From: an uncultured cyanobacterium
GTDB taxonomy: Bacteria > Cyanobacteriota > Cyanobacteriia > PCC-6307 > Cyanobiaceae
Length of the DNA stretch: 64,000 nucleotides
Assembly: GCA_963697335.1 (NCBI GenBank)
Contig: CAVONQ010000018.1
Location: forward strand, 352,001-416,000
Direction: 5' to 3'
Shown: positions 6,942 to 60,250 of the stretch, piece by piece
Layout: each line of letters begins with the position of its first letter
Position numbering within the stretch: position 1 is the first letter of the stretch
Program-made: the position numbers and the translations under genes
Notes under the pieces: model-generated
Database searches by the model: none
What the model was told of the DNA's origin: nothing
Seen by the model: the letters and a program-made list of their open reading frames with translations, nothing else

Positions 6942-7280
6942 ATGAACATCTTCGGAATCGGCCTGCCCGAGATGGCGGTGATCGCCGCCATCGGTTTGCT
7001 GGTGTTTGGGCCCAAGCGGCTGCCCGAGCTGGGCCGCACCCTGGGCCGGACGATCAAGGGCTTTCAATCGGCCTCCTCCGAATTTGAGCAGGAGTTCCGC
7101 ACCGCCATCAACAGCTTTGAAGCCACCGCTTCTGGGGCCGAATCTGCAGCACCCTCCGCCTCTCCTGCCCAGCTCTCGGTACCGCCAGCTGCTGTAGAGC
7201 CCGTTGTTGACACTGCCCCGACGCAAGCAGACTCTGCTGGGCACGACACTGGACCAGAGCCAGGGCCAAGCGCGATGTGA
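6942..7280 (+). CDS. tatA: Twin-arginine translocase subunit TatA/E
   Basis: MNIFGIGLPEMAVIAAIGLLVFGPKRLPELGRTLG. Confidence 0.92.
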   Translation: MNIFGIGLPEMAVIAAIGLLVFGPKRLPELGRTLGRTIKGFQSASSEFEQEFRTAINSFEATASGAESAAPSASPAQLSVPPAAVEPVVDTAPTQADSAGHDTGPEPGPSAM

Positions 7281-7332
7281 TCCCCGGCGCCAGCCTGAGG
7301 CTAGGGTCGCCAGCCTTCCCACGACGCGGTCC

Positions 7333-7968
7333 TTGCCGGTAGATCCGTCCACCAACAGTCCTCCCCTGCAGTTGGTGGTGGGGCTTGGGAACCCCGGCTC
7401 CCGCTATGCCGGCACCCGGCACAACGTCGGCTTCATGGCCCTGGAGCGCCTGGCCGCGGCCGCAGGCGTGACCTTCCGTCAGCAGGCCAAACTCCATGGC
7501 CTGCTGGCGGATCTGGGCCACGGAGATCAGCGCCTGCGGCTGCTGATGCCCCAGACGTTCATGAATGAGAGCGGCCGCTCGATTCGCGCTGCCCTCGGCT
7601 GGTTTTCAGTTGAGCCCGGCCAGCTGCTCGTGCTCGTGGATGACATGGACCTGCCCCTGGGCCGGCTGCGCCTGCGCGTCAGCGGCAGTGCCGGCGGCCA
7701 CAACGGCCTGCGCAGCACCATCAGCCAGCTCGGCACCCAGGATTTCCCCCGGCTGCGGATCGGTATCGGTGCCCCGGCCGACAATCCCGCCGAGCGACGC
7801 GCCCGCACCGTGGGTCACGTGTTGGGGCGCTTCTCCCCGGCCGAGCAGCCCTGCCTCGAGGACGTGCTCAGCGAGGTGGAGGCGGGCATCGGCCTGATCC
7901 AGCGCCAGGGTCTGGAACGGGCTGGTAATCGTTTGAACAGTTTTCAGCCCCAGCACCCCCCAGCCTGA
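7333..7968 (+). CDS. pth: Peptidyl-tRNA hydrolase (start uncertain; ORF open from 7204)
   Basis: LVVGLGNPG, TRHNVGF, PQTFMNESG, GSAGGHNGL motifs. Confidence 0.95.
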   Translation: MPVDPSTNSPPLQLVVGLGNPGSRYAGTRHNVGFMALERLAAAAGVTFRQQAKLHGLLADLGHGDQRLRLLMPQTFMNESGRSIRAALGWFSVEPGQLLVLVDDMDLPLGRLRLRVSGSAGGHNGLRSTISQLGTQDFPRLRIGIGAPADNPAERRARTVGHVLGRFSPAEQPCLEDVLSEVEAGIGLIQRQGLERAGNRLNSFQPQHPPA

Positions 7969-48443: not shown

Positions 48444-50024
48444 TTGAGCACCACCAGTCCCCACCGGGTGCTGCTCGTGAGGCTGCCCTGCAATCCGATT
48501 TTTCCGATCGGCCCCGTCTACCTCGCCGACCATCTGCACAAGCAGTTCCCTGATCTGCAGCAGCGGTTTCTCGACCTCGCCGCTCTGCCGGTGCTCGATG
48601 TGGAGCGCATTCTGGCCGCCGTGGTGGACAGTTTCCGCCCCACCCTGCTGGTGTTCTCCTGGCGTGACATCCAGATCTATGCCCCGGTGGATGGCCGCAG
48701 TGGCAACCCGCTGCAGCACTCCTTCGAGGTGTTCTACGCCCGCAACCCGCTCAAGCGGCTGCGCGGAGCCCTGGGGGGCCTGGGCCTGATGCGCGCTTTC
48801 TACGCCGAGCTCTGGCGCAACCTGCGGCTGGTGCGGCAAGGGGTGAAGCGGGCCCGGCGCTATCAGCCCGAAGCCCGCGCCGTGATCGGGGGCGGTGCCG
48901 TGAGTGTGTTCTATGAGCAGCTCGGGCGCCAGCTGCCCCCCGGCACGGTGGTGTCGGTCGGCGAGGGCGAACCCCTGCTGGAGAAGTTGGTCAGGGGCGA
49001 CTCCCTGGCCGGAGAGCGCTGCTTTGTGGCCGGCGAAGAGCCCCGCCCGGGTCTGATCCATGAGCAGCCCGGCAGTCTGGAGAAAACGGCCTGCAACTAC
49101 GACTACATCGCCTCGATCTGGCCCCAGCTCGACTGGTACCTCGAGGGGGGTGACTTCTACGTGGGGGTGCAGACCAAGCGGGGCTGTCCCCACAACTGCT
49201 GCTACTGCGTGTACACGGTGGTGGAGGGCAAGGCGGTGCGGGTGAATCCGGTGGAGGAGGTGATCGCTGAGATGGGGCAGCTCTACCGCCGGGGGGTGCG
49301 CGGCTTCTGGTTCACCGATGCCCAGTTCATCCCGGCCCGCCGCTACATCGAGGATGCCAAGGAATTGCTGCGGGCGATCCTGGCCGAAGGCTGGCACGAC
49401 ATCCGCTGGGCCGCCTACATCCGCGCCGACAATCTCGATGCCGAGCTGGCCGAACTGATGGTGGCCACCGGCATGGAGTATTTCGAGATCGGCATCACTT
49501 CGGGTTCCCAGGAGCTGGTGCGCAAGATGCGCATGGGCTACAACCTGCGCACCGTGCTGGAGAACTGCCGGCTGCTGGCCAGGGCCGGATTCCGCCACCA
49601 TGTGTCGGTGAACTACTCGTTCAATGTGATCGATGAGCGCCCCGAAACCATCCGCCAGACGGTGGCCTACCACCGCGAGCTGGAGCGCATCTTCGGCGCC
49701 GACAAAGTGGAACCGGCGATCTTCTTCATCGGCCTGCAGCCCCACACCCACCTGGAGCAATACGGCTTCGAACAGGGCCTGATCAAGCCGGGCTATAACC
49801 CGATGAGCATGATGCCCTGGGCGGCGCGCAAGACGCTCTGGAACCCCGAGCCGATGGGCAGCACCTTTGGGCGCATCTGTCTGGAGGCGTTTGACCGCAA
49901 CCCCGGCGACTTCGGCCGCACGGTGATGGACCTCCTGGAGCGGGATTACGGCCTGGCGCCCCTGGATGAGGCCCTCAGGGCTCCGGTGGAAGGCCGTCGC
50001 GCCCTCGCCAACGCGGTGCGCTGA
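48444..50024 (+). CDS. B12-binding radical SAM protein (cyanobacterial PSII high-light acclimation type)
   Basis: RLPCNPIFPIGPVYLADH, SWRDIQIYAP, KRGCPHNCCYC. Confidence 0.88.
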   Translation: MSTTSPHRVLLVRLPCNPIFPIGPVYLADHLHKQFPDLQQRFLDLAALPVLDVERILAAVVDSFRPTLLVFSWRDIQIYAPVDGRSGNPLQHSFEVFYARNPLKRLRGALGGLGLMRAFYAELWRNLRLVRQGVKRARRYQPEARAVIGGGAVSVFYEQLGRQLPPGTVVSVGEGEPLLEKLVRGDSLAGERCFVAGEEPRPGLIHEQPGSLEKTACNYDYIASIWPQLDWYLEGGDFYVGVQTKRGCPHNCCYCVYTVVEGKAVRVNPVEEVIAEMGQLYRRGVRGFWFTDAQFIPARRYIEDAKELLRAILAEGWHDIRWAAYIRADNLDAELAELMVATGMEYFEIGITSGSQELVRKMRMGYNLRTVLENCRLLARAGFRHHVSVNYSFNVIDERPETIRQTVAYHRELERIFGADKVEPAIFFIGLQPHTHLEQYGFEQGLIKPGYNPMSMMPWAARKTLWNPEPMGSTFGRICLEAFDRNPGDFGRTVMDLLERDYGLAPLDEALRAPVEGRRALANAVR

Positions 50025-50098: not shown

Positions 50099-52243
50099 GT
50101 GCGTTACGAGTGGGTCGAGCAACACGCCGAGGAGGATTGCGGCGCGGCCTGCCTGGCCACAGTGGCCCGCTACCACGGCCGCCGGCTGGCCCTCTCCCGG
50201 GTGCGCGAACTGGTGGGCACGGGGACCCGAGGCACCACCTTGCTGGGCCTGCGGCGGGGAGCCGACGCCGTCGGTTTCCATGCCCGGGCGGTGCGGGCCG
50301 ATGGGGCCCTGCTCGACCGCCTCGAGGCGCTGCCCCTGCCGGCGATCTGTCACTGGCAGGGAAACCACTGGGTGGTGCTGTACGGCCGGAAGGGCCGCAA
50401 GCTGGTGATTGCGGATCCGGCTGTCGGGATCCGCAGGTTGTCACCTGAGGAGTTTCGAGCCGGTTGGGGCAACGGGGTGCTGTTGCTGCTTGAGCCGGAT
50501 CTCAACCGTCTGCTGGAGCAGCCGCAGGAGGAGCGGCTGCCGTTTCTGCGCTTCCTGCGGCTGAGCTGGCCCTACCGGGGTTTGCTGCTGCAGGCCCTTG
50601 GCATCAACGTGGTGATCGGCCTGCTGGCCCTGGCCATGCCGCTGTTGATGCAGCTGCTCACCGATGATGTGCTGGTGCGCCGGGATAGCCAACTGCTCAC
50701 CAGCCTTGGCCTGGCGATGCTGTTTCTGTTTGTCTTTCGCAGCGCCATCAGCCTGATCCAGGGCCACATAGTGGGTCATTTCGCCCAGCGCCTTCAGCTG
50801 GGGATGGTGCTGGAGTACGGCCATCGGCTGCTGCGCTTGCCGATGACCTATTTCGACAGCCATCGCAGTGGCGAGGTGGTGAGCCGGATTGGCGACATCA
50901 GCCGGATTAATGCCCTGATCAGCGATCTGGTGTTGGGCCTGCCCAGTGACTTCTTCATTGCTGCCATCTCGCTGGTGGTGATGCTGATCTACAGCCCTCC
51001 ACTGACGGTCGTGTCCCTGTTGGCGTTTGGAATTTTGATCGCTTCCGGACTGCTATTTCTGCCAGCTCAATACGAAAAAAGCCGCCGCGTGATTGTGGAA
51101 TCCGCGGAGAATCAGGGGTTTCTGGTGGAGATCTTCCGTGGCGCCCAGGTGCTTAAAACCACCGAGGCGTTGCCCCAGGCCTGGGACGAGTACCAGCGCA
51201 ATTTCGGCAGCGTTGCGCACCTGCGTTGGGATGCACTGCAGTTGTCGTTGTTCAGTGGCACCACCACCGGGCTGCTGTCGCGGGTCACCACCCTGGCCCT
51301 CCTCTGGTATGGCAGCAGCTTCGTGATTTCTGGTCAACTCTCCATCGGCCAGTTGCTTGCTTTCAGCGGTATGAGCGGCAATGTGCTCGGTTTTCTGGAA
51401 TCCCTCGTGGACTTCACCGACGACTACCTGACCGCCAACGTGGTGATCAGGCGGCTCTCGGAGGTGCTGGAGGGCAGCCTGGAGGACCCTAAGGCGATCG
51501 ACAAGCCATGGGTGGCCCTGCCGCAGCCGTGCGAGATCCAGTGCCGCAATCTCAGCTTCCACCATGCCGGCCGGCTGGACCTGCTCAGCAACCTTCACCT
51601 CACCATTCCCGCCGCCTGCTGCACCGCCGTGATCGGGGAATCTGGCTGCGGCAAGAGCACCCTGGTGAAGCTGCTGGCCGGCCTCTATCCACCCCAGAGC
51701 GGCTCGATCCACTACGGACCCTACGGCCGTCACGACATCTCCCTGGACTGCCTGCGGCGGCAGGTGGTGCTGGTGCCCCAGGAGGCCCAGTTCTTCAACC
51801 GCACGATCTTCGAGAATTTTCGCTTCGCCTATCCCGACGTCAGCTTCGATCAGGTGGTGGCGGCCTGCGAGCGGGCACTGGCCGACGAATTCATCCGCGA
51901 CCTGCCGGACGGTTACCAGACCGTGCTGGGAGAATTCGGCGCCAACCTCTCGGGTGGTCAGCGCCAGCGCCTGGCGATCGCGCGCGCCCTGGTGTCCTGT
52001 CCGGCCGTGCTGATCCTGGATGAATCCACCGCCGCGTTGGACCCGGTGCTGGAGCGGCGCCTGATGGACAACCTCCTGCAGCATCGCAAGGGTTTGACCA
52101 CGGTGATGATCAGTCACCGCCCGAGCGTCATCCAGCGCTGTGATTGGCTGGTGTACCTGGAGCGAGGCCACGTCGTGTCCCAGGGTCGACCCCAGGACCT
52201 GGGCAACAGTGCACCACTGGCCCCCTACCTGCTGACGGCATGA
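50099..52243 (+). CDS. Peptidase C39-containing ABC transporter (PCAT, double-glycine leader exporter)
   Basis: QHAEEDCGAAC, NHWVV, IADP catalytic residues; TM domain; GESGCGKST, LSGGQ, ILDES, ISH. Confidence 0.95.
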   Translation: MRYEWVEQHAEEDCGAACLATVARYHGRRLALSRVRELVGTGTRGTTLLGLRRGADAVGFHARAVRADGALLDRLEALPLPAICHWQGNHWVVLYGRKGRKLVIADPAVGIRRLSPEEFRAGWGNGVLLLLEPDLNRLLEQPQEERLPFLRFLRLSWPYRGLLLQALGINVVIGLLALAMPLLMQLLTDDVLVRRDSQLLTSLGLAMLFLFVFRSAISLIQGHIVGHFAQRLQLGMVLEYGHRLLRLPMTYFDSHRSGEVVSRIGDISRINALISDLVLGLPSDFFIAAISLVVMLIYSPPLTVVSLLAFGILIASGLLFLPAQYEKSRRVIVESAENQGFLVEIFRGAQVLKTTEALPQAWDEYQRNFGSVAHLRWDALQLSLFSGTTTGLLSRVTTLALLWYGSSFVISGQLSIGQLLAFSGMSGNVLGFLESLVDFTDDYLTANVVIRRLSEVLEGSLEDPKAIDKPWVALPQPCEIQCRNLSFHHAGRLDLLSNLHLTIPAACCTAVIGESGCGKSTLVKLLAGLYPPQSGSIHYGPYGRHDISLDCLRRQVVLVPQEAQFFNRTIFENFRFAYPDVSFDQVVAACERALADEFIRDLPDGYQTVLGEFGANLSGGQRQRLAIARALVSCPAVLILDESTAALDPVLERRLMDNLLQHRKGLTTVMISHRPSVIQRCDWLVYLERGHVVSQGRPQDLGNSAPLAPYLLTA

Positions 52244-53385
52244 GCGAGCTTCCCGTCCGGGTGGCTGACGCCACCGAGAGCCAGCAGCTGCGCCCGGCCT
52301 CTGTTCAGGAGTTCCTGCCCTCGGTACGCCCCTGGGTGCGGCTGGCCGGCGTCGTGCTGGTGGGGAGTTTTGTGGCCGGCGTGGCGTTGATGGCGGTGTG
52401 GCCCTACCGAGTGGTGGTCAGAGCAGCAGGGTCTGTGCGGCCCAGTGGCGAGACCAGCCTGGTGCATGCGCCGCGGGATGGGCGGGTGAGGGAGATCCGC
52501 ATCCAGCCCAATCAGGAGGTCGAACGGGGTGAGGTGCTGGCGGTGATGGATCCCGCCGATCTGGAGGGCAGGGAGCTGAAGCTGCGGCAGGGCGGCACAT
52601 CGCTCGATGACCAGCTGGCGGCGCAGCGCAGGGAGAACACGGCTGCACTGCAGGCGGCACGACTGGAGGTCGAGAAGGCCCGGGCCACCCTTGATCTGGC
52701 CCGCTCGGAGTACCAGCGCTACAGCCAGCTCGTCAGCAGCGGTGCCGCCTCCCGGGAGCAGATGGAGGAGAAGCGTGCCAGTCTGAGCGTGGCGTCATCC
52801 AACCTGGCCAAGGCCCAGCGGGATGTGGAGCAGCAGCAGTCCCGGGGCGAGACTGCCCTGGCGAGACTGGGACAGCAACAGGTTGAAAACCAGGCGGAAC
52901 GGGCCCAGCTCGGCCGTGATCTCGGACGCCAGCTGATCAGGGCGCCCGTAGGGGGTGTGATCTTCTCCCTCACCCTCCGCAACCCCCTCCAGGTGGTCAC
53001 GGCCGGCCAGGAGCTGGCGCAGATCGCGCCCGAGGGGGCGCCGTACCTGGCGAAGGTGCAAGTGTCATCAGCGGACATCGCCAATGTGGAGGTGGGCCAG
53101 CGGGCCGATCTGCGCCTGGCGGGCTGTCCCTTCCCCGATTTCGGGACCCTGCGGGCCGAGGTGGTGTCCGTGGCTCCTGATGCGGCTGCGGTTCCGTCTG
53201 CTCCCGGTGGCGCGGGGGCCAGTGGCTATGCGGTGACACTGCGCCCGGAGCAGACCCAGCTGCGCTCGTCGTCCCGAAGCTGTGAGCTGCGGCTGGGCAT
53301 GGACCTCACAGCTGACATCACCACCCGGGTCGAGACCGTGCTCCAGTTCCTGTTGCGCAAGACCCGGCTGCTGGTGGGGCTGTGA
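52240..53385 (+). CDS. HlyD-family membrane fusion (periplasmic adaptor) protein
   Basis: ATG overlaps the PCAT stop (ATGA); one TM, GSVRPSGE, coiled coil, IRAPVGG, PFPDFGTL, LRLGM. Confidence 0.92.
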   Translation: MSELPVRVADATESQQLRPASVQEFLPSVRPWVRLAGVVLVGSFVAGVALMAVWPYRVVVRAAGSVRPSGETSLVHAPRDGRVREIRIQPNQEVERGEVLAVMDPADLEGRELKLRQGGTSLDDQLAAQRRENTAALQAARLEVEKARATLDLARSEYQRYSQLVSSGAASREQMEEKRASLSVASSNLAKAQRDVEQQQSRGETALARLGQQQVENQAERAQLGRDLGRQLIRAPVGGVIFSLTLRNPLQVVTAGQELAQIAPEGAPYLAKVQVSSADIANVEVGQRADLRLAGCPFPDFGTLRAEVVSVAPDAAAVPSAPGGAGASGYAVTLRPEQTQLRSSSRSCELRLGMDLTADITTRVETVLQFLLRKTRLLVGL

Positions 53386-53517
53386 TGCTGTGGCGACCCC
53401 CCTGGGCGGGACGCTTCCTCCTGCTGGGCGTGGGATTCATCGCAGTTCAGGCGTGGTGGGCTCCGCGCTGGGTTCTGCCAGCAGCCAGCACAGCCCCATG
53501 GGGGAGCAACAGCAGGG

Positions 53518-53572
53518 GTAAGAGTTTTCTTGCCGCTTTCCTGCCAATCTCTTACCGCCCATCTTGTAGTTT
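53518..53572 (+). promoter_or_regulatory. Operator/promoter of precursor 1: GTAAGA-N4-TCTTGCC-N4-TCCTGCC-N4-TCTTACC-N10-TAGTTT
   Basis: Three heptads at 11-bp period (53528, 53539, 53550) and a -10-like hexamer at 53567; same layout as 54095-54149. Confidence 0.7.
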
Positions 53573-53711
53573 ACGATCAGAACAGTCCCTTGGACTGATC
53601 AACCGATGGGCCAAACATGACCCACGTCTTGATCGCCAGAGGTCGGACGTCCGTCTGTTCAGGCCTTTCTGAATACAGAGTCTGATTTAAGTTCATCAAG
53701 AGGAGCAATCC

Positions 53712-53942
53712 ATGAACACAGAATCCATAGCAGACATGAGCCTGCCGGGGCTCAATCTGCTCTCGGGAGCAGAGAGCTTCATCCACGATCTCAACCCTGA
53801 AGATGAGGCCTCGATCGCGGGCGGCAGTGGCAGGCGCAGCCGTCTGCGCAGCCGCCGCAGCCGCCTTCGCAGCCGCCTCCGCAACCGCCGCAGCCGTTTG
53901 CGCAGTCGCCGCAGCCGTCTGCGCAGCCGCCGCAGGCGTTAG
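53712..53942 (+). CDS. Double-glycine leader precursor peptide A1 with Arg/Ser/Leu repeat core
   Basis: AGGAG RBS; 38-aa leader ending DLNPEDEASIAGG; core SGRRSRLRSRRSRLRSRLRNRRSRLRSRRSRLRSRRRR. Confidence 0.88.
   Translation: MNTESIADMSLPGLNLLSGAESFIHDLNPEDEASIAGGSGRRSRLRSRRSRLRSRLRNRRSRLRSRRSRLRSRRRR
53830..53939 (+). repeat. Imperfect 21-bp coding tandem repeat (RRSRLRS x4)
   Basis: CGCCGCAGCCGTCTGCGCAGC-like units with synonymous variation. Confidence 0.8.
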
Positions 53943-54094
53943 GAGGGTGGGTGGCCAGGTCTCCCAACAGGGGCTGTGCCCCCCGATGTTCACAAGGGGG
54001 CGCGCACCTCTCGAGGGTTGCATGGCTGGGGTGATGAAGTCACCTCGCTTGGCGTGACGGGAGCCCTACCCCATGGCGGTCACGCAGGGGAACA

Positions 54095-54149
54095 GTAAGA
54101 CTACTCTTACCATTCTCCTGCCATTCTCTTACTGTTCACCTGTTACATT
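54095..54149 (+). promoter_or_regulatory. Operator/promoter of precursor 2: GTAAGA-N4-TCTTACC-N4-TCCTGCC-N4-TCTTACT-N10-TACATT
   Basis: Heptads at 54105, 54116, 54127; extended -10 TGtTACATT at 54141-54149. Confidence 0.7.
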
Positions 54150-54300
54150 CCTATTAGTCCAGCCAAGAAGGCCGGACTGGTGGACAGGGCCGAAAGCCGC
54201 ACACAGATCACAGATCACAGAGCACTGATGGTCTTGTTGCCTACGGTTCTCTCCATCGCTCAATCAACCCTGGCACTTTGCCGAAACGGAGGAATACCGC

Positions 54301-54528
54301 ATGAACACACAAACCACAGCCGATGTTGCGTTGCTGGGCCTCGACCTGCTGCTCGGGCCCGATAGCCTCATCAGTGAGCTCAGTCCTGAGGATGAGGCCT
54401 CGATCTCGGGTGGCCGCCGTCGCCGCAGCCGCAGCGGCATCAGCCGTCCCAGCCGCAGCCGTCCCAGCCGCCGCAGCCGTCCCAGCCGTCCCAGCCGTAG
54501 CTTCCGGCGCAACCGCAGGCGCCGTTGA
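54301..54528 (+). CDS. Double-glycine leader precursor peptide A2 with Arg/Ser/Pro repeat core
   Basis: GGAGG RBS; 38-aa leader ending ELSPEDEASISGG (23/38 identical to A1); core RRRRSRSGISRPSRSRPSRRSRPSRPSRSFRRNRRRR. Confidence 0.88.
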   Translation: MNTQTTADVALLGLDLLLGPDSLISELSPEDEASISGGRRRRSRSGISRPSRSRPSRRSRPSRPSRSFRRNRRRR

Positions 54529-54573
54529 GCAAGTGACTGACCGGGGAACTTCTCCCCCTGTCGAGAGCTTCAG

Positions 54574-54609
54574 ACCCCGGGGCTGCTGGATGCCAGCCTC
54601 GGGGTTTTT
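54574..54609 (+). terminator. Intrinsic terminator/attenuator after precursor 2
   Basis: ACCCCGGGGCTG-N8-CAGCCTCGGGGT 12-bp stem (one G:U) followed by a T tract. Confidence 0.75.
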
Positions 54610-54671
54610 CTATAGCCTTGATCAAGTCCCTTGGGGCTGGAGCTTGTTGTTGCCGTGGTGAGTCTGGGGTC

Positions 54672-57164
54672 ATGGTCGTTCGTTTGAATTCGGAGGGCAT
54701 CCACGAGTATTTGATGCATCAGGGTCTGTGCGATTCAACGGATGTCGTTGAAGACGTTCAACAGTTGATTGGCAAAAATATGAATCTGCTGGTTCAACTC
54801 ACAAAGCCTGATGCTCAACCTTCAAGAGCCCGTCACTTGCTGATCAAGCAGGGACCGATCGGGCGATCGGAGCTGCCCAAACAGGATTTTGAAGAGGAAT
54901 GGAGAATTCATCAGCTGCTGGCTGGCCACGAACAGCTGTTTCCCCTGCAGGCCTTGCTGCCAGAGGGGATCAAGTTTGACGTCGCCAATGCCATTCAGAT
55001 CTTTCGATATCTTGAATCGTATGGCGATCTTGGCGACTTCTATGACGATGCCAAGCGGTTTCCCACCAAGGTCCCTGTGGCCCTCGGCAGTGCCCTAGCC
55101 GCGCTGCATCAGGCAACGTTCAGCCGCCAAGACTATCTTCTCCAATTAGATCCAGAGAGTGCTGATGAGGGATGTGAAAAGCCTGACTTTCGCGATGAGC
55201 TTGAGAATCTCACTCCAGAGATCTTCCGGCAGATCTCGATTGATGGTTTGCAATTCTACAGATTGTACAACCGATCAGAAGAGCTCTCGAAGGCCATAGC
55301 TCAGCTGGAGCATGACTATGAACCATGCTGCTTGATCCACAATGACCTGAAGTTTAGAAATATCCTGCTTCATGATGATTGGTCCCGCTGGCAGCCCCCG
55401 TCGTCCCTTCCTGCTTCTGTCCATGAGTTGTGTCTGCCCGATGCTCAGGGCCTTGTGCGTCTGATTGATTGGGAGCAATGGGCATGGGGTGACCCGGCCT
55501 TTGATGTGGGCGCCCTTGTGGCTGAGTATCTGCGGCTGTGGTTAAAGAGTCTGGTGCTCAGCCGCGATGTTGACCTGGTGGTGGCGTTGCAGCTTGCTGC
55601 CGTGCCCCTGGACACGCTGCAGCCCTCCCTTGCGGCCTTCATGCAGGCCTATCTGGCCCAGTTCCCCGGCATCCTGGCGGCGTTTCCCGCCTTCCCAGCA
55701 CGGGTGCTGCGCTTCGCCGGCCTCGGTTTGATTGGGGCGATTCAGGACAGGCTGCACTATCGGGAGTCCTGTGGAAATCTGGAAATTGCGATGCTGCAAG
55801 TGGCCAGATCATTGCTCTGCAATCCGGAAGCCGCCATGGTCACGGTGTTCGGCTGCAGGGATGTTCAACCTGATGGCTTTCAACCTTCTGGCCTTGAACC
55901 TGACCTTGCACCTGGCCTTGAACGTGACGTTGGAGACAGCGGCAGCCCTTCTCCCGCCCAATCCCCACGCGACAAGTGTGAACTGCAGGGCCAGGTGCCT
56001 CTGCCCCTTTGGGTGCAGCGTGGCCCTAGTGAGGAGGCTCTCGCTGACCTGATCACCAATGTTCGAATTGAGCCTCCACTGATTTTTCATCCGGCCTACC
56101 AGGTCCTTGATCTGGTCCATCCAGGGGAACCTCAGAGCACGGGGATGGATCAACGCCAGCAATGCTTGAGCAAGTTGCCTGACGACCTTCGCCAGGCCTA
56201 TCTGGTGCGTCAGGTGAGAAACTATCTGCATGATATCTACTTCAGTGGCGAGCGGGAAAGGAAGGGGCCTGGGATTGCGGCGACCAAGGAGTTCAAGAAC
56301 GATTCTGTTTCTGGACTCAACGTGGATTACTTTCATCGGATCGAGCTGGCCAATGGCGGCACAGGCTTTCCTGACCCCGACTGGATGATCCTTCGCTGGG
56401 ATGGCGATCGTGCTCAGGTGGAAAAAGATGGTCTGCGACTCTGGGTTAATCCCTGCGTTGACCTTGTGAAGGATGAGGCCTTGAAGCTGAGCTCCATCCG
56501 GCGTGAGGGTCCACCATCAGTAACTGTGGGTGCAGCAGTGGGTGCAGCAATGGCTGTGGGAACAACGGTGGTGTTACGGTTGCCCAATGCAGTTTTGACT
56601 GAAGAGAGCTACAGCGCGATCGGCAATGGAGGAGAGCCTGCTCCTGATCAGCCTTGCATCATCATCTACTTCAATATCAGTGCTGAAGGTGCTCTTCTGC
56701 TGATGGATGTTCTGACCAAGGCCCTGAATCTGCAGGGATGCCCCTTCGCTTTGACCATCCTGACTGATCCTGCCTGCTATGGCCGATTCAACAGTGTCAC
56801 CTTGATGATCGAGGCTACTCACTATCAGGACGTACGCACCATTCTCTGTGAGCTTCAGGCCAGGCTTCAGCCCCATCTGAGCCATCCGATTCCCCTGTTC
56901 ACCTGGCCTCTGGCCCCGGGCATCGGTCTGGCCGAATGCCCGCAGGACGAGGATGACTTTGGTCTGTCTCGATGCCAGATCCTGGCCGAAGCCCTGATCC
57001 TGGCTGATGCCAGTCCCGAGTCCCGGCGGCAAGCCATGCGAGCAAAGTTTTCCGAGCGCAAGCTGAACTGGCAACATCCCCACCTCAATCCTGAATCAGA
57101 CTCCCACTACCCACCCCTGCCGCCACGGGACCGTAGCCAGGCGGCGAATGTCCATCTCAACTAG
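54672..57164 (+). CDS. Fused APH-family phosphotransferase + HopA1-like domain protein (putative RiPP maturase), 830 aa
   Basis: N-half: GKNMNLLV, LLIKQ, IHNDLKFRNIL, LIDWE...GDPAFD. C-half: IYFN, YGRFNS, PLFT..LAPGIGLAE, FGLSRCQ, HPHLN resembling HopA1 family. Confidence 0.8.
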   Translation: MVVRLNSEGIHEYLMHQGLCDSTDVVEDVQQLIGKNMNLLVQLTKPDAQPSRARHLLIKQGPIGRSELPKQDFEEEWRIHQLLAGHEQLFPLQALLPEGIKFDVANAIQIFRYLESYGDLGDFYDDAKRFPTKVPVALGSALAALHQATFSRQDYLLQLDPESADEGCEKPDFRDELENLTPEIFRQISIDGLQFYRLYNRSEELSKAIAQLEHDYEPCCLIHNDLKFRNILLHDDWSRWQPPSSLPASVHELCLPDAQGLVRLIDWEQWAWGDPAFDVGALVAEYLRLWLKSLVLSRDVDLVVALQLAAVPLDTLQPSLAAFMQAYLAQFPGILAAFPAFPARVLRFAGLGLIGAIQDRLHYRESCGNLEIAMLQVARSLLCNPEAAMVTVFGCRDVQPDGFQPSGLEPDLAPGLERDVGDSGSPSPAQSPRDKCELQGQVPLPLWVQRGPSEEALADLITNVRIEPPLIFHPAYQVLDLVHPGEPQSTGMDQRQQCLSKLPDDLRQAYLVRQVRNYLHDIYFSGERERKGPGIAATKEFKNDSVSGLNVDYFHRIELANGGTGFPDPDWMILRWDGDRAQVEKDGLRLWVNPCVDLVKDEALKLSSIRREGPPSVTVGAAVGAAMAVGTTVVLRLPNAVLTEESYSAIGNGGEPAPDQPCIIIYFNISAEGALLLMDVLTKALNLQGCPFALTILTDPACYGRFNSVTLMIEATHYQDVRTILCELQARLQPHLSHPIPLFTWPLAPGIGLAECPQDEDDFGLSRCQILAEALILADASPESRRQAMRAKFSERKLNWQHPHLNPESDSHYPPLPPRDRSQAANVHLN

Positions 57165-57181
57165 CCAGCAATCAGGATGCG

Positions 57182-57886
57182 ATGAGAATTCTAGTGGTTG
57201 AAGATGATGCTGGGATTTCCAGATTCATCCAGCAAGGACTGAGCGAGGCTGGCTACGCTATCGACGTGGCTTCTGATGGTCCCGAAGGATTGCGATTTGC
57301 CGAGGCCGCTGACTACGATGCCGTAGTGCTCGACGTGTTGCTGCCTGGTCAGGATGGCTTGAGCGTCCTGAAGAGCCTGCGCCAGCAGGGCCTTCAGACC
57401 CCGGTGCTGCTGTTGACGGCCCTGGATACCGTCGAAGACCGAGTGCTGGGTTTGGATGCAGGGGCTGATGACTACCTGATCAAACCATTTGACTTCACAG
57501 AACTACTGGCTCGCCTGCGCGCATTGCTCCGGCGCCCGCCCTTGCATGCCGATGTCGTGCTCAGAGTGGGTCGTCTGCAGATGGACACAGTCCACAGGAT
57601 TGTCAAGCGGGATGACCATCCGATTGAGCTCAGCCCACGGGAGTATTCCCTGCTGGAATATCTGATGCGCAATGCGGATCACGTTCTCAGCCGCACCCAG
57701 ATCGCCCAGCATGTCTGGAGTTTTGACTTTTATGGAGACTTCAAGGTGATTGATGTCTATATTGGCTATCTGCGTCGAAAAATCGATCAGCAGGGATCGC
57801 CGTCGTTGATCAGAACCGTGCGTGGTGTGGGTTATTCGATGAACGCTCATGTGGAGGCTTCCCCTGCTGAAGGAGTCGGCCCCTGA
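57182..57886 (+). CDS. OmpR/PhoB family response regulator
   Basis: ILVVEDD, VLDVLLP, LLTA, GADDYLIKPF, LSPREY, IRTVRGVGY. Confidence 0.96.
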   Translation: MRILVVEDDAGISRFIQQGLSEAGYAIDVASDGPEGLRFAEAADYDAVVLDVLLPGQDGLSVLKSLRQQGLQTPVLLLTALDTVEDRVLGLDAGADDYLIKPFDFTELLARLRALLRRPPLHADVVLRVGRLQMDTVHRIVKRDDHPIELSPREYSLLEYLMRNADHVLSRTQIAQHVWSFDFYGDFKVIDVYIGYLRRKIDQQGSPSLIRTVRGVGYSMNAHVEASPAEGVGP

Positions 57887-57911
57887 TCCCATTACCTTCC
57901 ATGTTTAGATC

Positions 57912-59375
57912 ATGGTGATGCAGCGAAAGTCCTGGCAAAGTCTGCGCTTGAGGCTGGTGGCCTGGTACAGCTTGTTGGCCGGCGTTTCGATGCTTGTTTC
58001 CGATGGCTATACCTATCTGGAGTTTCGACAGACCCTGCTGGCCCAGATTGACCGTTCTCTGGAGGTCAGCGCAATTCAGGCCCGCAAGAATCTTGACGAT
58101 GAAGTTGATGCGCTGGTGTTTGACCCCCGCCGGGACGCGCCGCTGCTGGCCTCCCTGCTTAATGATGCGGGCGTAGAAATCTATTTGATCAGTTTGGATG
58201 GTTCGATCAAGGAGCAGTTCGGAGACTCGCTCTCATCCCTCAGCACATCCAACCTCGAACCTGGATACCATACCGTCGCCAGGTCCAGTGGGCGTTGGCG
58301 AACCTATACCAAGGAACTTCTTGCCAGTGGGGGTGATCCCTCGGGATGGCTGAAGGTGGCTCAGTCGCTCAAGCCCATGGATGCCACCTTGGCCAGGGTG
58401 TTTCAGCGCAATCTTCTCAAGCTACCCATTCTGCTTGGCATGATTGCCCTTGGCGGACTGTTTCTGGCCAACCGTGCCCTGCAACCCATCGCCCGAATCA
58501 CAAGAACGATTCAGCATATTCGGGTGAGTGGAGATCTCGCCCAGCGCATTCACTACAAGAGCAGTGCTGCTGATGAACTGGCGCGCCTGGCTACTCTCAT
58601 TGATGGGATGCTGGATTCCATTCAGTCCACCTTTGACCACGAAAGACGATTCACTGCCGATGCATCCCATGAGCTTCGCACCCCGCTGACAGCCATGAAG
58701 GGTCGTCTGCAGGTGACCCTGAGCCAACTCCGCACGGTCGACACTTACGAAGAGACCCTCAGGGCGATCGGGCTGGAAGTGGATCGTTTGATTCGTCTCA
58801 GCAATGATCTGCTGCTGCTCTCCCGTCTGGAGCAGAACCACATCAATCCTCCCATGGAAAAGGTGGATCTTGGCCATTTACTCGCCGAGTCGGCTGCCCA
58901 GATTCAGCCGCTGGCTGAACTTCGCCATCTCCATCTGACGACGACCCTTGAGCCCGATCTTTTTATCCAGGGATACCCAGACCATCTGATTCGTTTGTTT
59001 CTGAACCTGCTCGATAATGCCGTCAAAAATACTCCCGATGAGGGCTCTGTGGGTGTGCAGGCCCTGACCTTCTCAAGCATGGTGCAGGTCACCCTTCGTG
59101 ACAGCGGCGTCGGCATCCCCTCTGAGCACCTGCCCCATCTGTTTGAACGCTTTTATCGCGTCGAGAAATCCCGTTCACGCGCCTTGGGTGGCACAGGTCT
59201 GGGCCTGGCCATTGCCCAGGAAATCGTCCATCGCCACCACGGCACGATCTCCGTGGCGAGTCAGCCTGGCCTGGGGACGACCTTCACGATCAGATTTCCA
59301 TGTCATCGCGATGCCGCAGCCGATTCCCATGCCCCTCAGCCCAGGCACCGACTGGGATCAGCAGAGTCCAGCTAG
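57912..59375 (+). CDS. Membrane sensor histidine kinase (2 TM, HAMP, HisKA, HATPase_c)
   Basis: DELARLA, FTADASHELRTPL, NLLDNAVK, DSGVGI, FERFYR, GTGLGLAI. Confidence 0.95.
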   Translation: MVMQRKSWQSLRLRLVAWYSLLAGVSMLVSDGYTYLEFRQTLLAQIDRSLEVSAIQARKNLDDEVDALVFDPRRDAPLLASLLNDAGVEIYLISLDGSIKEQFGDSLSSLSTSNLEPGYHTVARSSGRWRTYTKELLASGGDPSGWLKVAQSLKPMDATLARVFQRNLLKLPILLGMIALGGLFLANRALQPIARITRTIQHIRVSGDLAQRIHYKSSAADELARLATLIDGMLDSIQSTFDHERRFTADASHELRTPLTAMKGRLQVTLSQLRTVDTYEETLRAIGLEVDRLIRLSNDLLLLSRLEQNHINPPMEKVDLGHLLAESAAQIQPLAELRHLHLTTTLEPDLFIQGYPDHLIRLFLNLLDNAVKNTPDEGSVGVQALTFSSMVQVTLRDSGVGIPSEHLPHLFERFYRVEKSRSRALGGTGLGLAIAQEIVHRHHGTISVASQPGLGTTFTIRFPCHRDAAADSHAPQPRHRLGSAESS

Positions 59376-60250
59376 CCGCTCCTCCCATGGGCCTGTTCAT
59401 TGCTGCCCTGGCACCGGGGAGGGCCTTGGCGCTGTTGAACGAGCAGCACAGCCAGCAGCCCCAGCCAGCCGATCGCACCCCCCAGTGGGTTGGTGCCTGA
59501 GCCCACACCGCCGGGCCCGGCCCACCAGCCGGGCGCCTCGGCCGACACCGCCAGCAGCCCGCTCTGCACCAGGAACCAGCCGCCCACGAGGCCACCGTGC
59601 AGCGCCGCCGGCCCCCACAGCAGGCCGTTCCCCCCTTGCCTCTCCCGGGCCAGCACCACCCCCAGCAGGATCAGGCCCCCCAGCAGGCTGAATGCCAGGA
59701 GCCCATTCTCCTGATACCAGGGGTGCACCAAGCCAAACACCAGGGCCTGCAGCAGCAGCGCCAGGGGATCCTTCAGCCCCAGCCGCAGTTCACCCCAGAG
59801 CCAGCCGCGAAATAGCAGCTCCTCCGCCAGGCCCACGCCGCAGGCCAGCAGCAGGGCATTCACGAGCAGGCCCCCATCCAACCTGCCCAGCCAGCGGGCC
59901 TGCCCGCTGAGCAGCAGCGCCACGCTCACCAGTGCCAGCAAGGCCAGGGCTTTGGCCAACCCCCTGGCGGCGCTGGCCAGGGCTCGGCGGGGGCTGCAGA
60001 TGAGGCCAAGGGTCCTCCAGGGTCGCGACACCCCCCAGGCGGTGCGCAGACGCCACGGCAGCGTGGCCAGCAGAAGGGCAAAGGAGAGCGACACGCCGGC
60101 CAGGTCCACCTGGTCAGGCCGCCAGCCAGGTGCCAGCCAGCCCAGGGGCCGGGAGAGCAGGAAGCCCACGCCATAGAGCACGGGCACATAGAGCACCGTG
60201 CCCCACCAGCGGGGCATGGGTGCAGGCCCAGCCGGGCCTGGCGCCGCCAT
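59372..60250 (-). CDS. CPBP (CAAX protease/Abi) family intramembrane metalloprotease
   Basis: AEELLFRG, FGLVH, LHGG motifs; multiple TMs. Confidence 0.88.
   Translation of the reverse strand: MAAPGPAGPAPMPRWWGTVLYVPVLYGVGFLLSRPLGWLAPGWRPDQVDLAGVSLSFALLLATLPWRLRTAWGVSRPWRTLGLICSPRRALASAARGLAKALALLALVSVALLLSGQARWLGRLDGGLLVNALLLACGVGLAEELLFRGWLWGELRLGLKDPLALLLQALVFGLVHPWYQENGLLAFSLLGGLILLGVVLARERQGGNGLLWGPAALHGGLVGGWFLVQSGLLAVSAEAPGWWAGPGGVGSGTNPLGGAIGWLGLLAVLLVQQRQGPPRCQGSNEQAHGRSG

Follow-up and report, generated by a model that had tools for sequence, protein, structure and literature searches.

What would a relative of the lanthipeptide dehydratases make once the half that eliminates phosphate has lost its catalytic residues? 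This question is raised by a gene in a stretch of 64,000 nucleotides from an uncultured cyanobacterium of the Cyanobiaceae (assembly GCA_963697335.1, contig CAVONQ010000018.1, positions 352,001 to 416,000), a stretch that is called the window throughout. The gene encodes a kinase fused to a HopA1-like half and lies next to two genes for precursor peptides whose cores are rich in arginine and serine. Because the HopA1 half is without the catalytic Lys, Arg and Tyr, the serines of both cores are predicted to be phosphorylated with no subsequent elimination of the phosphate. The most likely product, to which we give a little better than an even chance on the basis of the sequences, would therefore be a set of multiply phosphorylated, charge-compensated Ser/Arg peptides that are exported by the adjacent C39-ABC/HlyD system.

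A kinase and a HopA1 domain in one chain

The gene and its parts are as follows.

54672-57164, forward strand: kinase-HopA1 open reading frame (ORF), a stop-free translation of 830 amino acids
54672-55862, forward strand: kinase half of LanK/LxmK type, residues 1-397 (Pfam APH, NCBIfam LxmK, superposition on LxmK)
55863-55994, forward strand: variable linker of Pro, Ser, Asp and Gly, residues 398-441 (alignment without consensus; predicted local distance difference test score, pLDDT, below 50 at 411-441)
55995-57164, forward strand: HopA1/LanY-like half with replaced lyase site, residues 442-830 (PF17914, superposition on LxmY)

The ATG start of the reading frame agrees with the N-terminus of all homologues in the alignment. 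The HopA1 family (PF17914) was matched at residues 638-805, over profile positions 2-170 of 170 (E = 6e-38). The Pfam match of the kinase half to APH (PF01636) is weak, yet above threshold (E = 1.7e-6, 28.4 bits against a cut-off of 23.2), and its best NCBIfam match is the class V kinase LxmK (E = 3e-24), although the score of 85.8 bits is far under the equivalog cut-off of 315. An AlphaFold2 model of the full chain (pLDDT 82.9, predicted template modelling score 0.80) displays two folded halves separated by disorder at residues 411-441. When the predicted models were superposed with VIA-align, the kinase half fell on LxmK (9dk3_A) with Z 31.1 and a root mean square deviation (rmsd) of 3.3 over 334 residues, and the C-terminal half, modelled separately (pLDDT 78.4), fell on LxmY (9dk1_B) with Z 23.4 and rmsd 3.1 over 290 residues. 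After LxmY, the HopA1 half matched best the Pseudomonas syringae HopA1 effector (4rsw, Z 15.1) and the lyase domains of CuvL, SalKC and ThurKC (Z 9-11), followed by SpvC (2q8y, Z 6.8 over 146 residues), and Foldseek was concordant with these results. Since one half matches LxmK and the other LxmY, the models indicate that the protein unites in one chain the two partners of the class V lanthipeptide dehydratase, LanK and LanY, which otherwise form a heterodimer.

The catalytic motifs of the kinase are all in place: LLIKQ with K59 (54846-54848), HNDLKFRN from residue 223 (H223-x-D225-x4-N230, 55338-55361) and DWE from residue 266 (D266-W-E268, 55467-55475). The residues K59, E76, H223, D225, N230, D266 and E268 are at least 90% conserved among 94 canonical kinases and 68 kinases of the SR type that is introduced below. 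A sequence-only reading of this DNA had already called these motifs intact, with the second at 55338 and the third at 55467, and had described a linker with repeats. Both descriptions stand, as the segment of about residues 398-441 is poorly conserved and its DNA carries weak tandem repeats of 15/12 bp at 55864-55932.

The lyase site

The motifs of the HopA1 half read IIYFN (664), PFALTIL (691), YGRFNSVTLMI (703), PLFTW (741), AECP (754) and DDFG (761). In a profile alignment, the segments RRIFLH, HAKVLSDP and FPRRDAVVLYL of LxmY (PDB 9dk1_B) are placed against IIIYFN, ALTILTDP and YGRFNSVTLMI of the window protein. The numbering of CaoY was carried over to these columns with a two-residue offset on the printed chain, which yields R187 and K219, and the spacings are identical (Lys to Arg +10, Arg to Tyr +7). 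The matching offset and the identical spacings make I664 the counterpart of R187, T695 of K219, R705 of R229 and M712 of Y236. The hidden Markov model (HMM) alignments to 9dk1_B span the C-terminal two thirds of LxmY only, and the invariant H473 is no more than a candidate for the equivalent of CaoY H57. The site residues, all placed by alignment to 9dk1_B, are the following.

56661-56663, forward strand: I664, in the column of CaoY/LxmY R187, the enolate-stabilising Arg
56754-56756, forward strand: T695, in the column of CaoY/LxmY K219, the catalytic base
56784-56792, forward strand: R705 (column of CaoY R229, retained), F706 and N707 (canonical Asp, codon from 56790)
56805-56807, forward strand: M712, in the column of CaoY Y236 and SpvC Y158

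According to the passages on enzyme variants in PMC9486802, CaoY K219A gives phosphorylated peptide only, R187A nearly abolishes elimination and R229Q is merely inefficient, while the base has Y236 as its conserved partner. The same passages equate SpvC K136 and Y158 with CaoY K219 and Y236, describe SpvC K136A as dead and state that the residues K104/H106 are already missing from LanY. Over 121 aligned rows, column 664 is Arg in 61, including every row in which columns 664, 695, 705, 707 and 712 read R-K-R-D-Y; column 695 is Lys in 99, with Thr, Ser or Ala in the clade of the window protein. The change from Asp to Asn at column 707 is a common variant (27 of the 121 rows).

The sequence-only reading had quoted the same motifs, with T695 at 56754, N707 at 56790 and M712 at 56805, and all of this is correct; the consensus that it gave (RIYFN, PFxFKVL, YxRYDSGVLYF, AEEP, ESFG) is what the split Nostocales-type HopA1 proteins actually read. 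From these motifs it had concluded that the Arg, Lys, Asp and Tyr expected for phosphate elimination are replaced. The alignment with the characterised LanY proteins bears this out for the Arg, Lys and Tyr, which were mutagenised in CaoY or partner the base and whose columns hold Ile, Thr and Met here. The Asp calls for a correction, Asn being a common variant at its column.

Cationic cores accompany the altered site

The substrates of the enzyme are expected to be the products of two small genes located upstream of it.

53712-53942, forward strand: precursor 1, 76 amino acids, leader ending in ...EDEASIAGG, core of 38 residues with 22 Arg and 9 Ser
54301-54528, forward strand: precursor 2, 75 amino acids, leader ending in ...EDEASISGG, core of 37 residues with 19 Arg and 10 Ser

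Both cores are without Cys, and their DNA consists in part of tandem repeats (53834-53935 in precursor 1, 54416-54501 in precursor 2). The core repeat DNA is also open in alternative forward frames (53803-54057 and 54323-54661), which would encode Ala-rich peptides; in every relative, it is into the Arg/Ser frame that the conserved leaders continue. Four copies of a 7-bp tandem repeat, CACAGAT (54202-54229), lie between the precursor genes.

The comparison with relatives drew on 67 homologous database proteins, all of them cyanobacterial where a source is named, and on relatives in species genomes (493, 80 loci kept) and in metagenomes (166, 80 loci kept), together with five stretches from the genomes of relatives. 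Some loci are the same contig taken twice (for example L006/L170, L008/L086 and L058/L094). The five site columns were read over 154 loci. For close relatives, a DNA locus came only from the same-genus genome G106, and P0003-P0007 (70-89% identity) were compared as proteins. The possibility that the G106 homologue is a broken gene was rejected, as its ORF merely ends about 22 residues earlier (808 amino acids).

Kinase and HopA1 are encoded by separate adjacent genes in most loci; fusion is confined to picocyanobacterial and Leptolyngbya-like loci and a few others. Among the fetched loci, R-K-R-D-Y was found in 111 of 111 split Nostocales-type HopA1 ORFs, as against none of the 27 fused ORFs. 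In a set of 76 fused database proteins, the Lys is kept in 54, the Arg in 8, the Tyr in 2 and the full R-K-R-D-Y in one. The clade of the window protein (P0001-P0007 and the same-genus locus L169) reads I/T/M/S - T/S/A - R - N - M/A/T. By comparison, the HopA1-LanC fusions, in which dehydration is needed for the rings, read R-K-R-D-Y in six of six cases. Seven proteins of 750-825 amino acids (P0067, P0068, P0186, P0191, P0200, P0203 and P0208) have an N-terminal HopA1 followed by another module, with a LanC Pfam match in P0067 and P0068; the six of them with a readable site all have R-K-R-D-Y.

With a leader HMM seeded by the two leaders of the window, the related loci yielded 298 small ORFs, hydrophobic-core precursors of canonical loci among them; the leader of precursor 1 in turn fits a leader HMM made from related loci. 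Cores located by enzymes without R-K-R-D-Y have at least 21% Arg plus Lys in 38 of 38 cases (33 distinct; 35 of 43 loci, plus L102), with a median of 48% Arg plus Lys and 22% Ser plus Thr. Cores by purely canonical enzymes reach 20% in 1 of 234 cases (91 of 100 loci) and have a median of 7%. This pairing of altered sites with Arg/Lys-rich cores assigns the altered lyase site to a distinct subtype, here named SR type. The SR type is a cyanobacterial subfamily, fused or split, that is mostly without the Arg and the Tyr. Among the fetched loci it is strictly paired with double-glycine-leader precursors whose cores are protamine-like Arg/Ser or Lys/Ser repeats, and with a C39-ABC/HlyD exporter. 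The degenerate site that the sequence-only reading had pointed out is thus real in the window protein, though not private to it, as loss of the Arg and Tyr is subfamily-wide. The fusion, which had been considered notable in itself, turned out to be the usual form in this subfamily, with the 76 database proteins and 27 loci mentioned above.

The conserved frame of the HopA1 half has largely been maintained in the SR type. Of 89 columns with 95% or higher conservation in canonical proteins, most remain conserved, and the four that have become least so include columns 712 and 664. Of the 63 distinct SR-type rows, 16 do without the catalytic Lys, which corresponds to at least nine changes on the tree, whereas 2 of the 108 rows that retain the Arg and Tyr do so, with one change on the tree. 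By this measure the Lys is dispensable in the subfamily. An enzyme in which the Lys has become Asp (L006/L170) and its Lys-retaining sisters (L081/L171) have nearly the same precursor. The HopA1 tree shows two changes of site state and three of core type, so that the association is complete yet phylogenetically shallow. The tree was built without an actinobacterial outgroup, and R-K-R-D-Y as the ancestral state rests on LxmY and CaoY having that state. In one of the changes, cationic cores appear, from the sequences, to have been acquired independently while the Arg was lost: the clade of L111, L136 and L141, which is nested inside the canonical clade, reads S-K-C-D-S/Y and has cores with GCCYCSYSGSKSKSK... 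and Cys-flanked Ser/Lys repeats, GCCYCSYSGSKSKSKSKSKSKSYS.

The SR-type cores also share a pattern of charge. The 33 distinct cores have a net charge of +6 to +26 (median +15), and Arg or Lys occupies position -1 or +1 of 214 of their 265 Ser/Thr residues. If each Ser/Thr carried a charge of -2, the median would be 0 and 19 of the 33 cores would fall within ±4 (a descriptive figure, without a null model), and the two cores of the window, at +22 and +19, would end at +4 and -1.

Other variants of the site were observed in these loci. A second kinase and HopA1 pair follows the canonical one in the Nostocales loci L017, L023, L038, L047, L048, L054, L058, L094, L104 and L130 (for example L023:10878-13200). 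Its HopA1 reads x-E-L-N/D-K, with Lys replaced by Glu and R705 by Leu, and a distinct precursor between both pairs ends in ...S(L/V)LLC(N/Q); this second pair could be a pseudo-pair whose role is not that of a lyase. Four loci with split pairs (L150, L151, L154 and L160, with HopA1 ORFs from about 7186-7481) form a small clade that reads R/Q-Q-R-D-Y, the Lys being replaced by Gln, and the leader HMM detected no double-glycine (GG) leader precursor in these four loci. In G132, a genome of the same genus as that of the window, two SR-type islands (L172 and L173) lie on opposite strands at a distance of about 10 kb. One of the enzymes reads L-S-R-D-E, without the Lys, and goes with a Lys/Arg/Ser/His core with terminal Cys; the other reads E-K-R-N-H, with the Lys retained, and goes with an (SRP)n core.

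A kinase with a probable disabled lyase and the alternatives

In the favoured reading, the kinase half would bind the leader, a role to which the AlphaFold models published for CaoKY and LxmKY point, and would phosphorylate the Arg-flanked serines in the two adjacent precursor cores. The HopA1 half would have lost elimination and would be kept as a structural partner that shapes the substrate cavity together with the kinase, in the way that LxmY serves LxmK, and it may still grip phosphoserine through the retained R705. In published work LanK is insoluble without LanY and both together form the substrate cavity, and a similar dependence of the kinase on the HopA1 half, for folding and for the shared cavity, would account for the retention of the latter. 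The C39-ABC/HlyD system would cut the leader at the GG site and export the product. The core charge of about +19 to +22 would be largely cancelled by 9-10 phosphates, and a mask of this kind would shield the producing cell or adjust how active the peptide is. The adjacent two-component system would provide regulation and the CPBP protein immunity. The sequence-only reading had proposed a pseudo-lyase that serves as scaffold or for binding of the leader. The first role fits the insolubility of LanK without LanY, and the second is less likely, since the leader touches the kinase and not the lyase in the published CaoKY model.

In favour of this reading are the replacement of residues that matter in CaoY, the contrast with the split Nostocales-type proteins and the HopA1-LanC fusions, the repeated loss of the Lys, the conserved kinase motifs, the single HopA1 domain of the genome, the neighbourhoods in which no lyase, cyclase or phosphatase was recognised, and the purifying selection on the HopA1 half, which fits a domain that is kept. 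Several observations weigh against it. Most SR-type members retain the Lys (54 of the 76 fused proteins), and the residues R705, H473, Y523, N561, Y647, N686, E755, R767 and R785 are invariant in the HopA1 half. A further six, R465, R507, R530, H555, R580 and H804, are fixed in the clade of the window protein, taken as sequence positions only. The HopA1 half shows no decay either: in a single pair with the same-genus homologue, the ratio of non-synonymous to synonymous substitution rates (dN/dS) is 0.15 in the kinase half, 0.27 in the HopA1 half and 0.38 in the linker, and on the value from this one pair the HopA1 half is under purifying selection. In addition, there are only one or two independent pairs, which leaves the counts that link enzyme subtype with cationic cores without statistical weight, and the near neutrality of the cores, if phosphorylated, is a descriptive pattern.

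The invariant residues and the retention of the Lys could mean that the site is rewired and still works. The HopA1 half would then be a phospho-lyase and the product a dehydroalanine-rich arginine peptide, the polycationic substrate supplying the charges of R187 (substrate-assisted catalysis) and another residue acting as the base. The fold is intact, R705 and many polar residues are shared by canonical and SR types, and K695 is present in most SR-type enzymes. Furthermore, in many SR-type members the Arg and Tyr columns hold Glu, Asp or Gln, and SR-type kinase halves carry more negative charge (median -15 vs -10), which resembles adaptation to a basic substrate and not decay, and the Cys found in a few SR-type cores (L001, L018, L063 and L136) could add to dehydroalanine. 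The window protein and its clade, however, are also without the Lys, and no clade-specific Lys that could replace the base was found in the HopA1 half of that clade. The repeated losses of the Lys in the subfamily point in the same direction, as do the dead K219A and K136A variants of CaoY and SpvC (described in the same passages of PMC9486802), the cores of the window without Cys and the island without a cyclase. Taken together, a rewired lyase is rather unlikely, though it is the chief alternative.

A further explanation is that the HopA1 half has acquired a new activity or binding role, for instance as a phosphoserine 'reader' that gives the kinase processivity, or in some other phosphopeptide chemistry. 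This would be consistent with the purifying selection and with the retention of the phosphate-contacting R705 while the base and enolate residues are gone; moreover, no SR-type locus was seen that has the kinase and not the HopA1 part. Against this, R705 is itself replaced by Cys, Thr or Tyr in 7 of the 63 SR-type rows and nothing points to any particular new chemistry. It is held to be improbable, and it overlaps with the favoured reading of a kinase with a disabled lyase, from which it is hard to tell apart by sequence alone.

The genomic island

The kinase-HopA1 gene belongs to an island (50099-60250) that is flanked by housekeeping genes and includes the following neighbours.

50099-52243, forward strand: peptidase C39-ABC exporter for cleavage of the GG leader and export (Pfam Peptidase_C39 2.2e-35, ABC_membrane 2e-36, ABC_tran 1.3e-29; NCBIfam bacteriocin/NHLP exporter families)
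52237-53385, forward strand: HlyD-type membrane fusion protein (Pfam HlyD_3 4e-22; NCBIfam type_I_hlyD 2.6e-37)
57182-57886, forward strand: OmpR-type response regulator (Pfam Response_reg 1.1e-27, Trans_reg_C 4e-27)
57912-59375, forward strand: HAMP histidine kinase (Pfam HATPase_c, HisKA, HAMP)
59372-60250, reverse strand: homologue of Rce1-like/CPBP intramembrane proteases (Pfam Rce1-like 6.4e-12)

The start of the HlyD gene is uncertain, the ORF listing giving TTG at 52144; ATG at 52237 was adopted. The response regulator and histidine kinase pair recurs by related picocyanobacterial and Drouetiella loci, with the histidine kinase in L169, L170, L171, L173, L008 and L004, and a Rce1-like/CPBP protein is also present in L169 and L172. 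Over ten SR-type loci with 48 neighbour ORFs, the exporter, the HlyD protein and the two-component pair recur, and the CPBP protein is sometimes present. Among these 48 ORFs, none was recognised as a lyase, a LanC/cyclase, a LanD or a phosphatase, and the Pfam families of LanD, LanX and LanC are likewise not represented within the island. The two-component pair and the CPBP protein downstream of the enzyme suggest peptide-responsive regulation and immunity. A B12-radical SAM gene (48444-50024) was considered as a member of the cluster and rejected, because it occurs also in genomes of the genus without the kinase-HopA1 gene (a copy of about 90% identity in 11 of 11 genus genomes). The genome of the window is 98.8% complete, and this HopA1 domain is its only one. 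A scan of 53300-57400 for promoters and terminators gave one promoter-like and no terminator-like signal, not above shuffled sequences.

The distribution and composition of the island raise the question of whether it is a decaying, non-functional remnant in which the residues were lost by drift. A homologue occurs patchily, in 6 of 201 sampled genomes of the taxonomic family; the guanine plus cytosine content drops to 0.56-0.57 at 54-58 kb, compared with 0.65-0.74 elsewhere; and no RNA data were found among the 17 sequencing runs listed. On the other hand, every gene of the island is intact, dN/dS is well under 1 in both halves of the enzyme, the same gene set is kept across cyanobacterial orders and the kinase motifs are invariant. 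A decaying island is therefore considered very improbable.

Implications

The wider claim, that cyanobacteria make secreted protamine-like Arg/Ser and Lys/Ser peptides whose charge is switched off by a dehydratase-derived poly-Ser kinase with a pseudo-lyase, is tentative, with a chance that we place slightly short of even. If it holds, these loci would represent an unrecognised class of secreted polycationic phosphopeptides that is widespread in cyanobacteria, from picocyanobacteria to Nostocales. Pathways for peptides made on ribosomes and modified after translation (RiPPs) that end in phosphorylation are rare, and the polyphosphopeptides would form a new RiPP class, a bacterial counterpart to the phosphorylation of SR proteins, protamines and silaffins, in which the phosphates would mask the charge so that export is safe, or would themselves be the functional group. 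The HopA1 half would be a clear natural example of a pseudoenzyme retained as a partner domain, and the enzyme would be a natural tool to install many phosphoserines in Arg/Ser repeats.

Comparison with known systems

The type of cluster has been known since 2021 as Family 1A, which was described as uncharacterised, restricted to cyanobacteria and composed of GG-leader precursors with variable cores, encoded beside a phosphotransferase and HopA1 (Eyles et al., 2021, PMC8153245, main text). The window locus, with its conserved GG-leader precursors by phosphotransferase and HopA1, fits this family, although the main text of that study names no polycationic-core subtype, kinase-HopA1 fusion or loss of lyase residues. 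An earlier catalogue of cyanobacterial bacteriocins, of 2011, lists such clusters, and the words kinase, phosphotransferase, arginine and serine do not occur in its accessible text (PMC3140520). In the literature, no paper was found that describes the SR subtype, or Arg/Ser-core precursors with a degenerate LanY. A cyanobacterial RiPP pathway with phosphorylation as the final modification is that of the dolichospermamides, where, in the relevant passages of PMC12639078, the kinase domain of a cyanobactin macrocyclase is responsible; that kinase is unrelated to the present one, prefers Tyr and modifies single sites on small cyclic peptides.

Among the lanthipeptide synthetases, the LanKC and LanL enzymes of classes III and IV (ThurKC, SalKC, CuvL) also carry lyase and kinase in one chain and have the lyase fold in common with the HopA1 half. 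Their order is lyase, kinase and cyclase, their kinase is of the Ser/Thr protein kinase type and their lyase residues are intact, whereas here an APH-type kinase is followed by a lyase-like half and there is no cyclase. The fold is also shared with the OspF/SpvC phosphothreonine lyases and the P. syringae HopA1 effector; in contrast to OspF/SpvC, the equivalents of K136 and Y158 are T695 and M712, and the domain is part of a peptide-modifying enzyme and not a secreted effector. The class V LanK/LanY enzymes (LxmK-LxmY, PDB 9DK1-9DK3, and CaoK-CaoY) are the closest, being the best structural matches and sharing the APH-fold kinase with its motifs, the HopA1-fold partner and the equivalent of R229. 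They differ in being heterodimers, where the window has one polypeptide, and in having R187, K219 and Y236 in place of Ile, Thr and Met; the window pathway, for its part, has an Arg/Ser-repeat substrate without Cys and neither LanD nor LanX nor LanC. Judged by sequence, the protein is a descendant of a class V LanK/LanY dehydratase, yet one in which the catalytic residues that define the class have been replaced.

In eukaryotes, multi-site phosphorylation of Ser switches the charge of Arg/Lys-Ser repeats in the SR proteins that are substrates of SRPK, in protamines and in silaffins. If the favoured reading of a kinase with a disabled lyase is right, the cyanobacterial locus would be alike to these systems in its working, with no homology between them and in a different cellular context.

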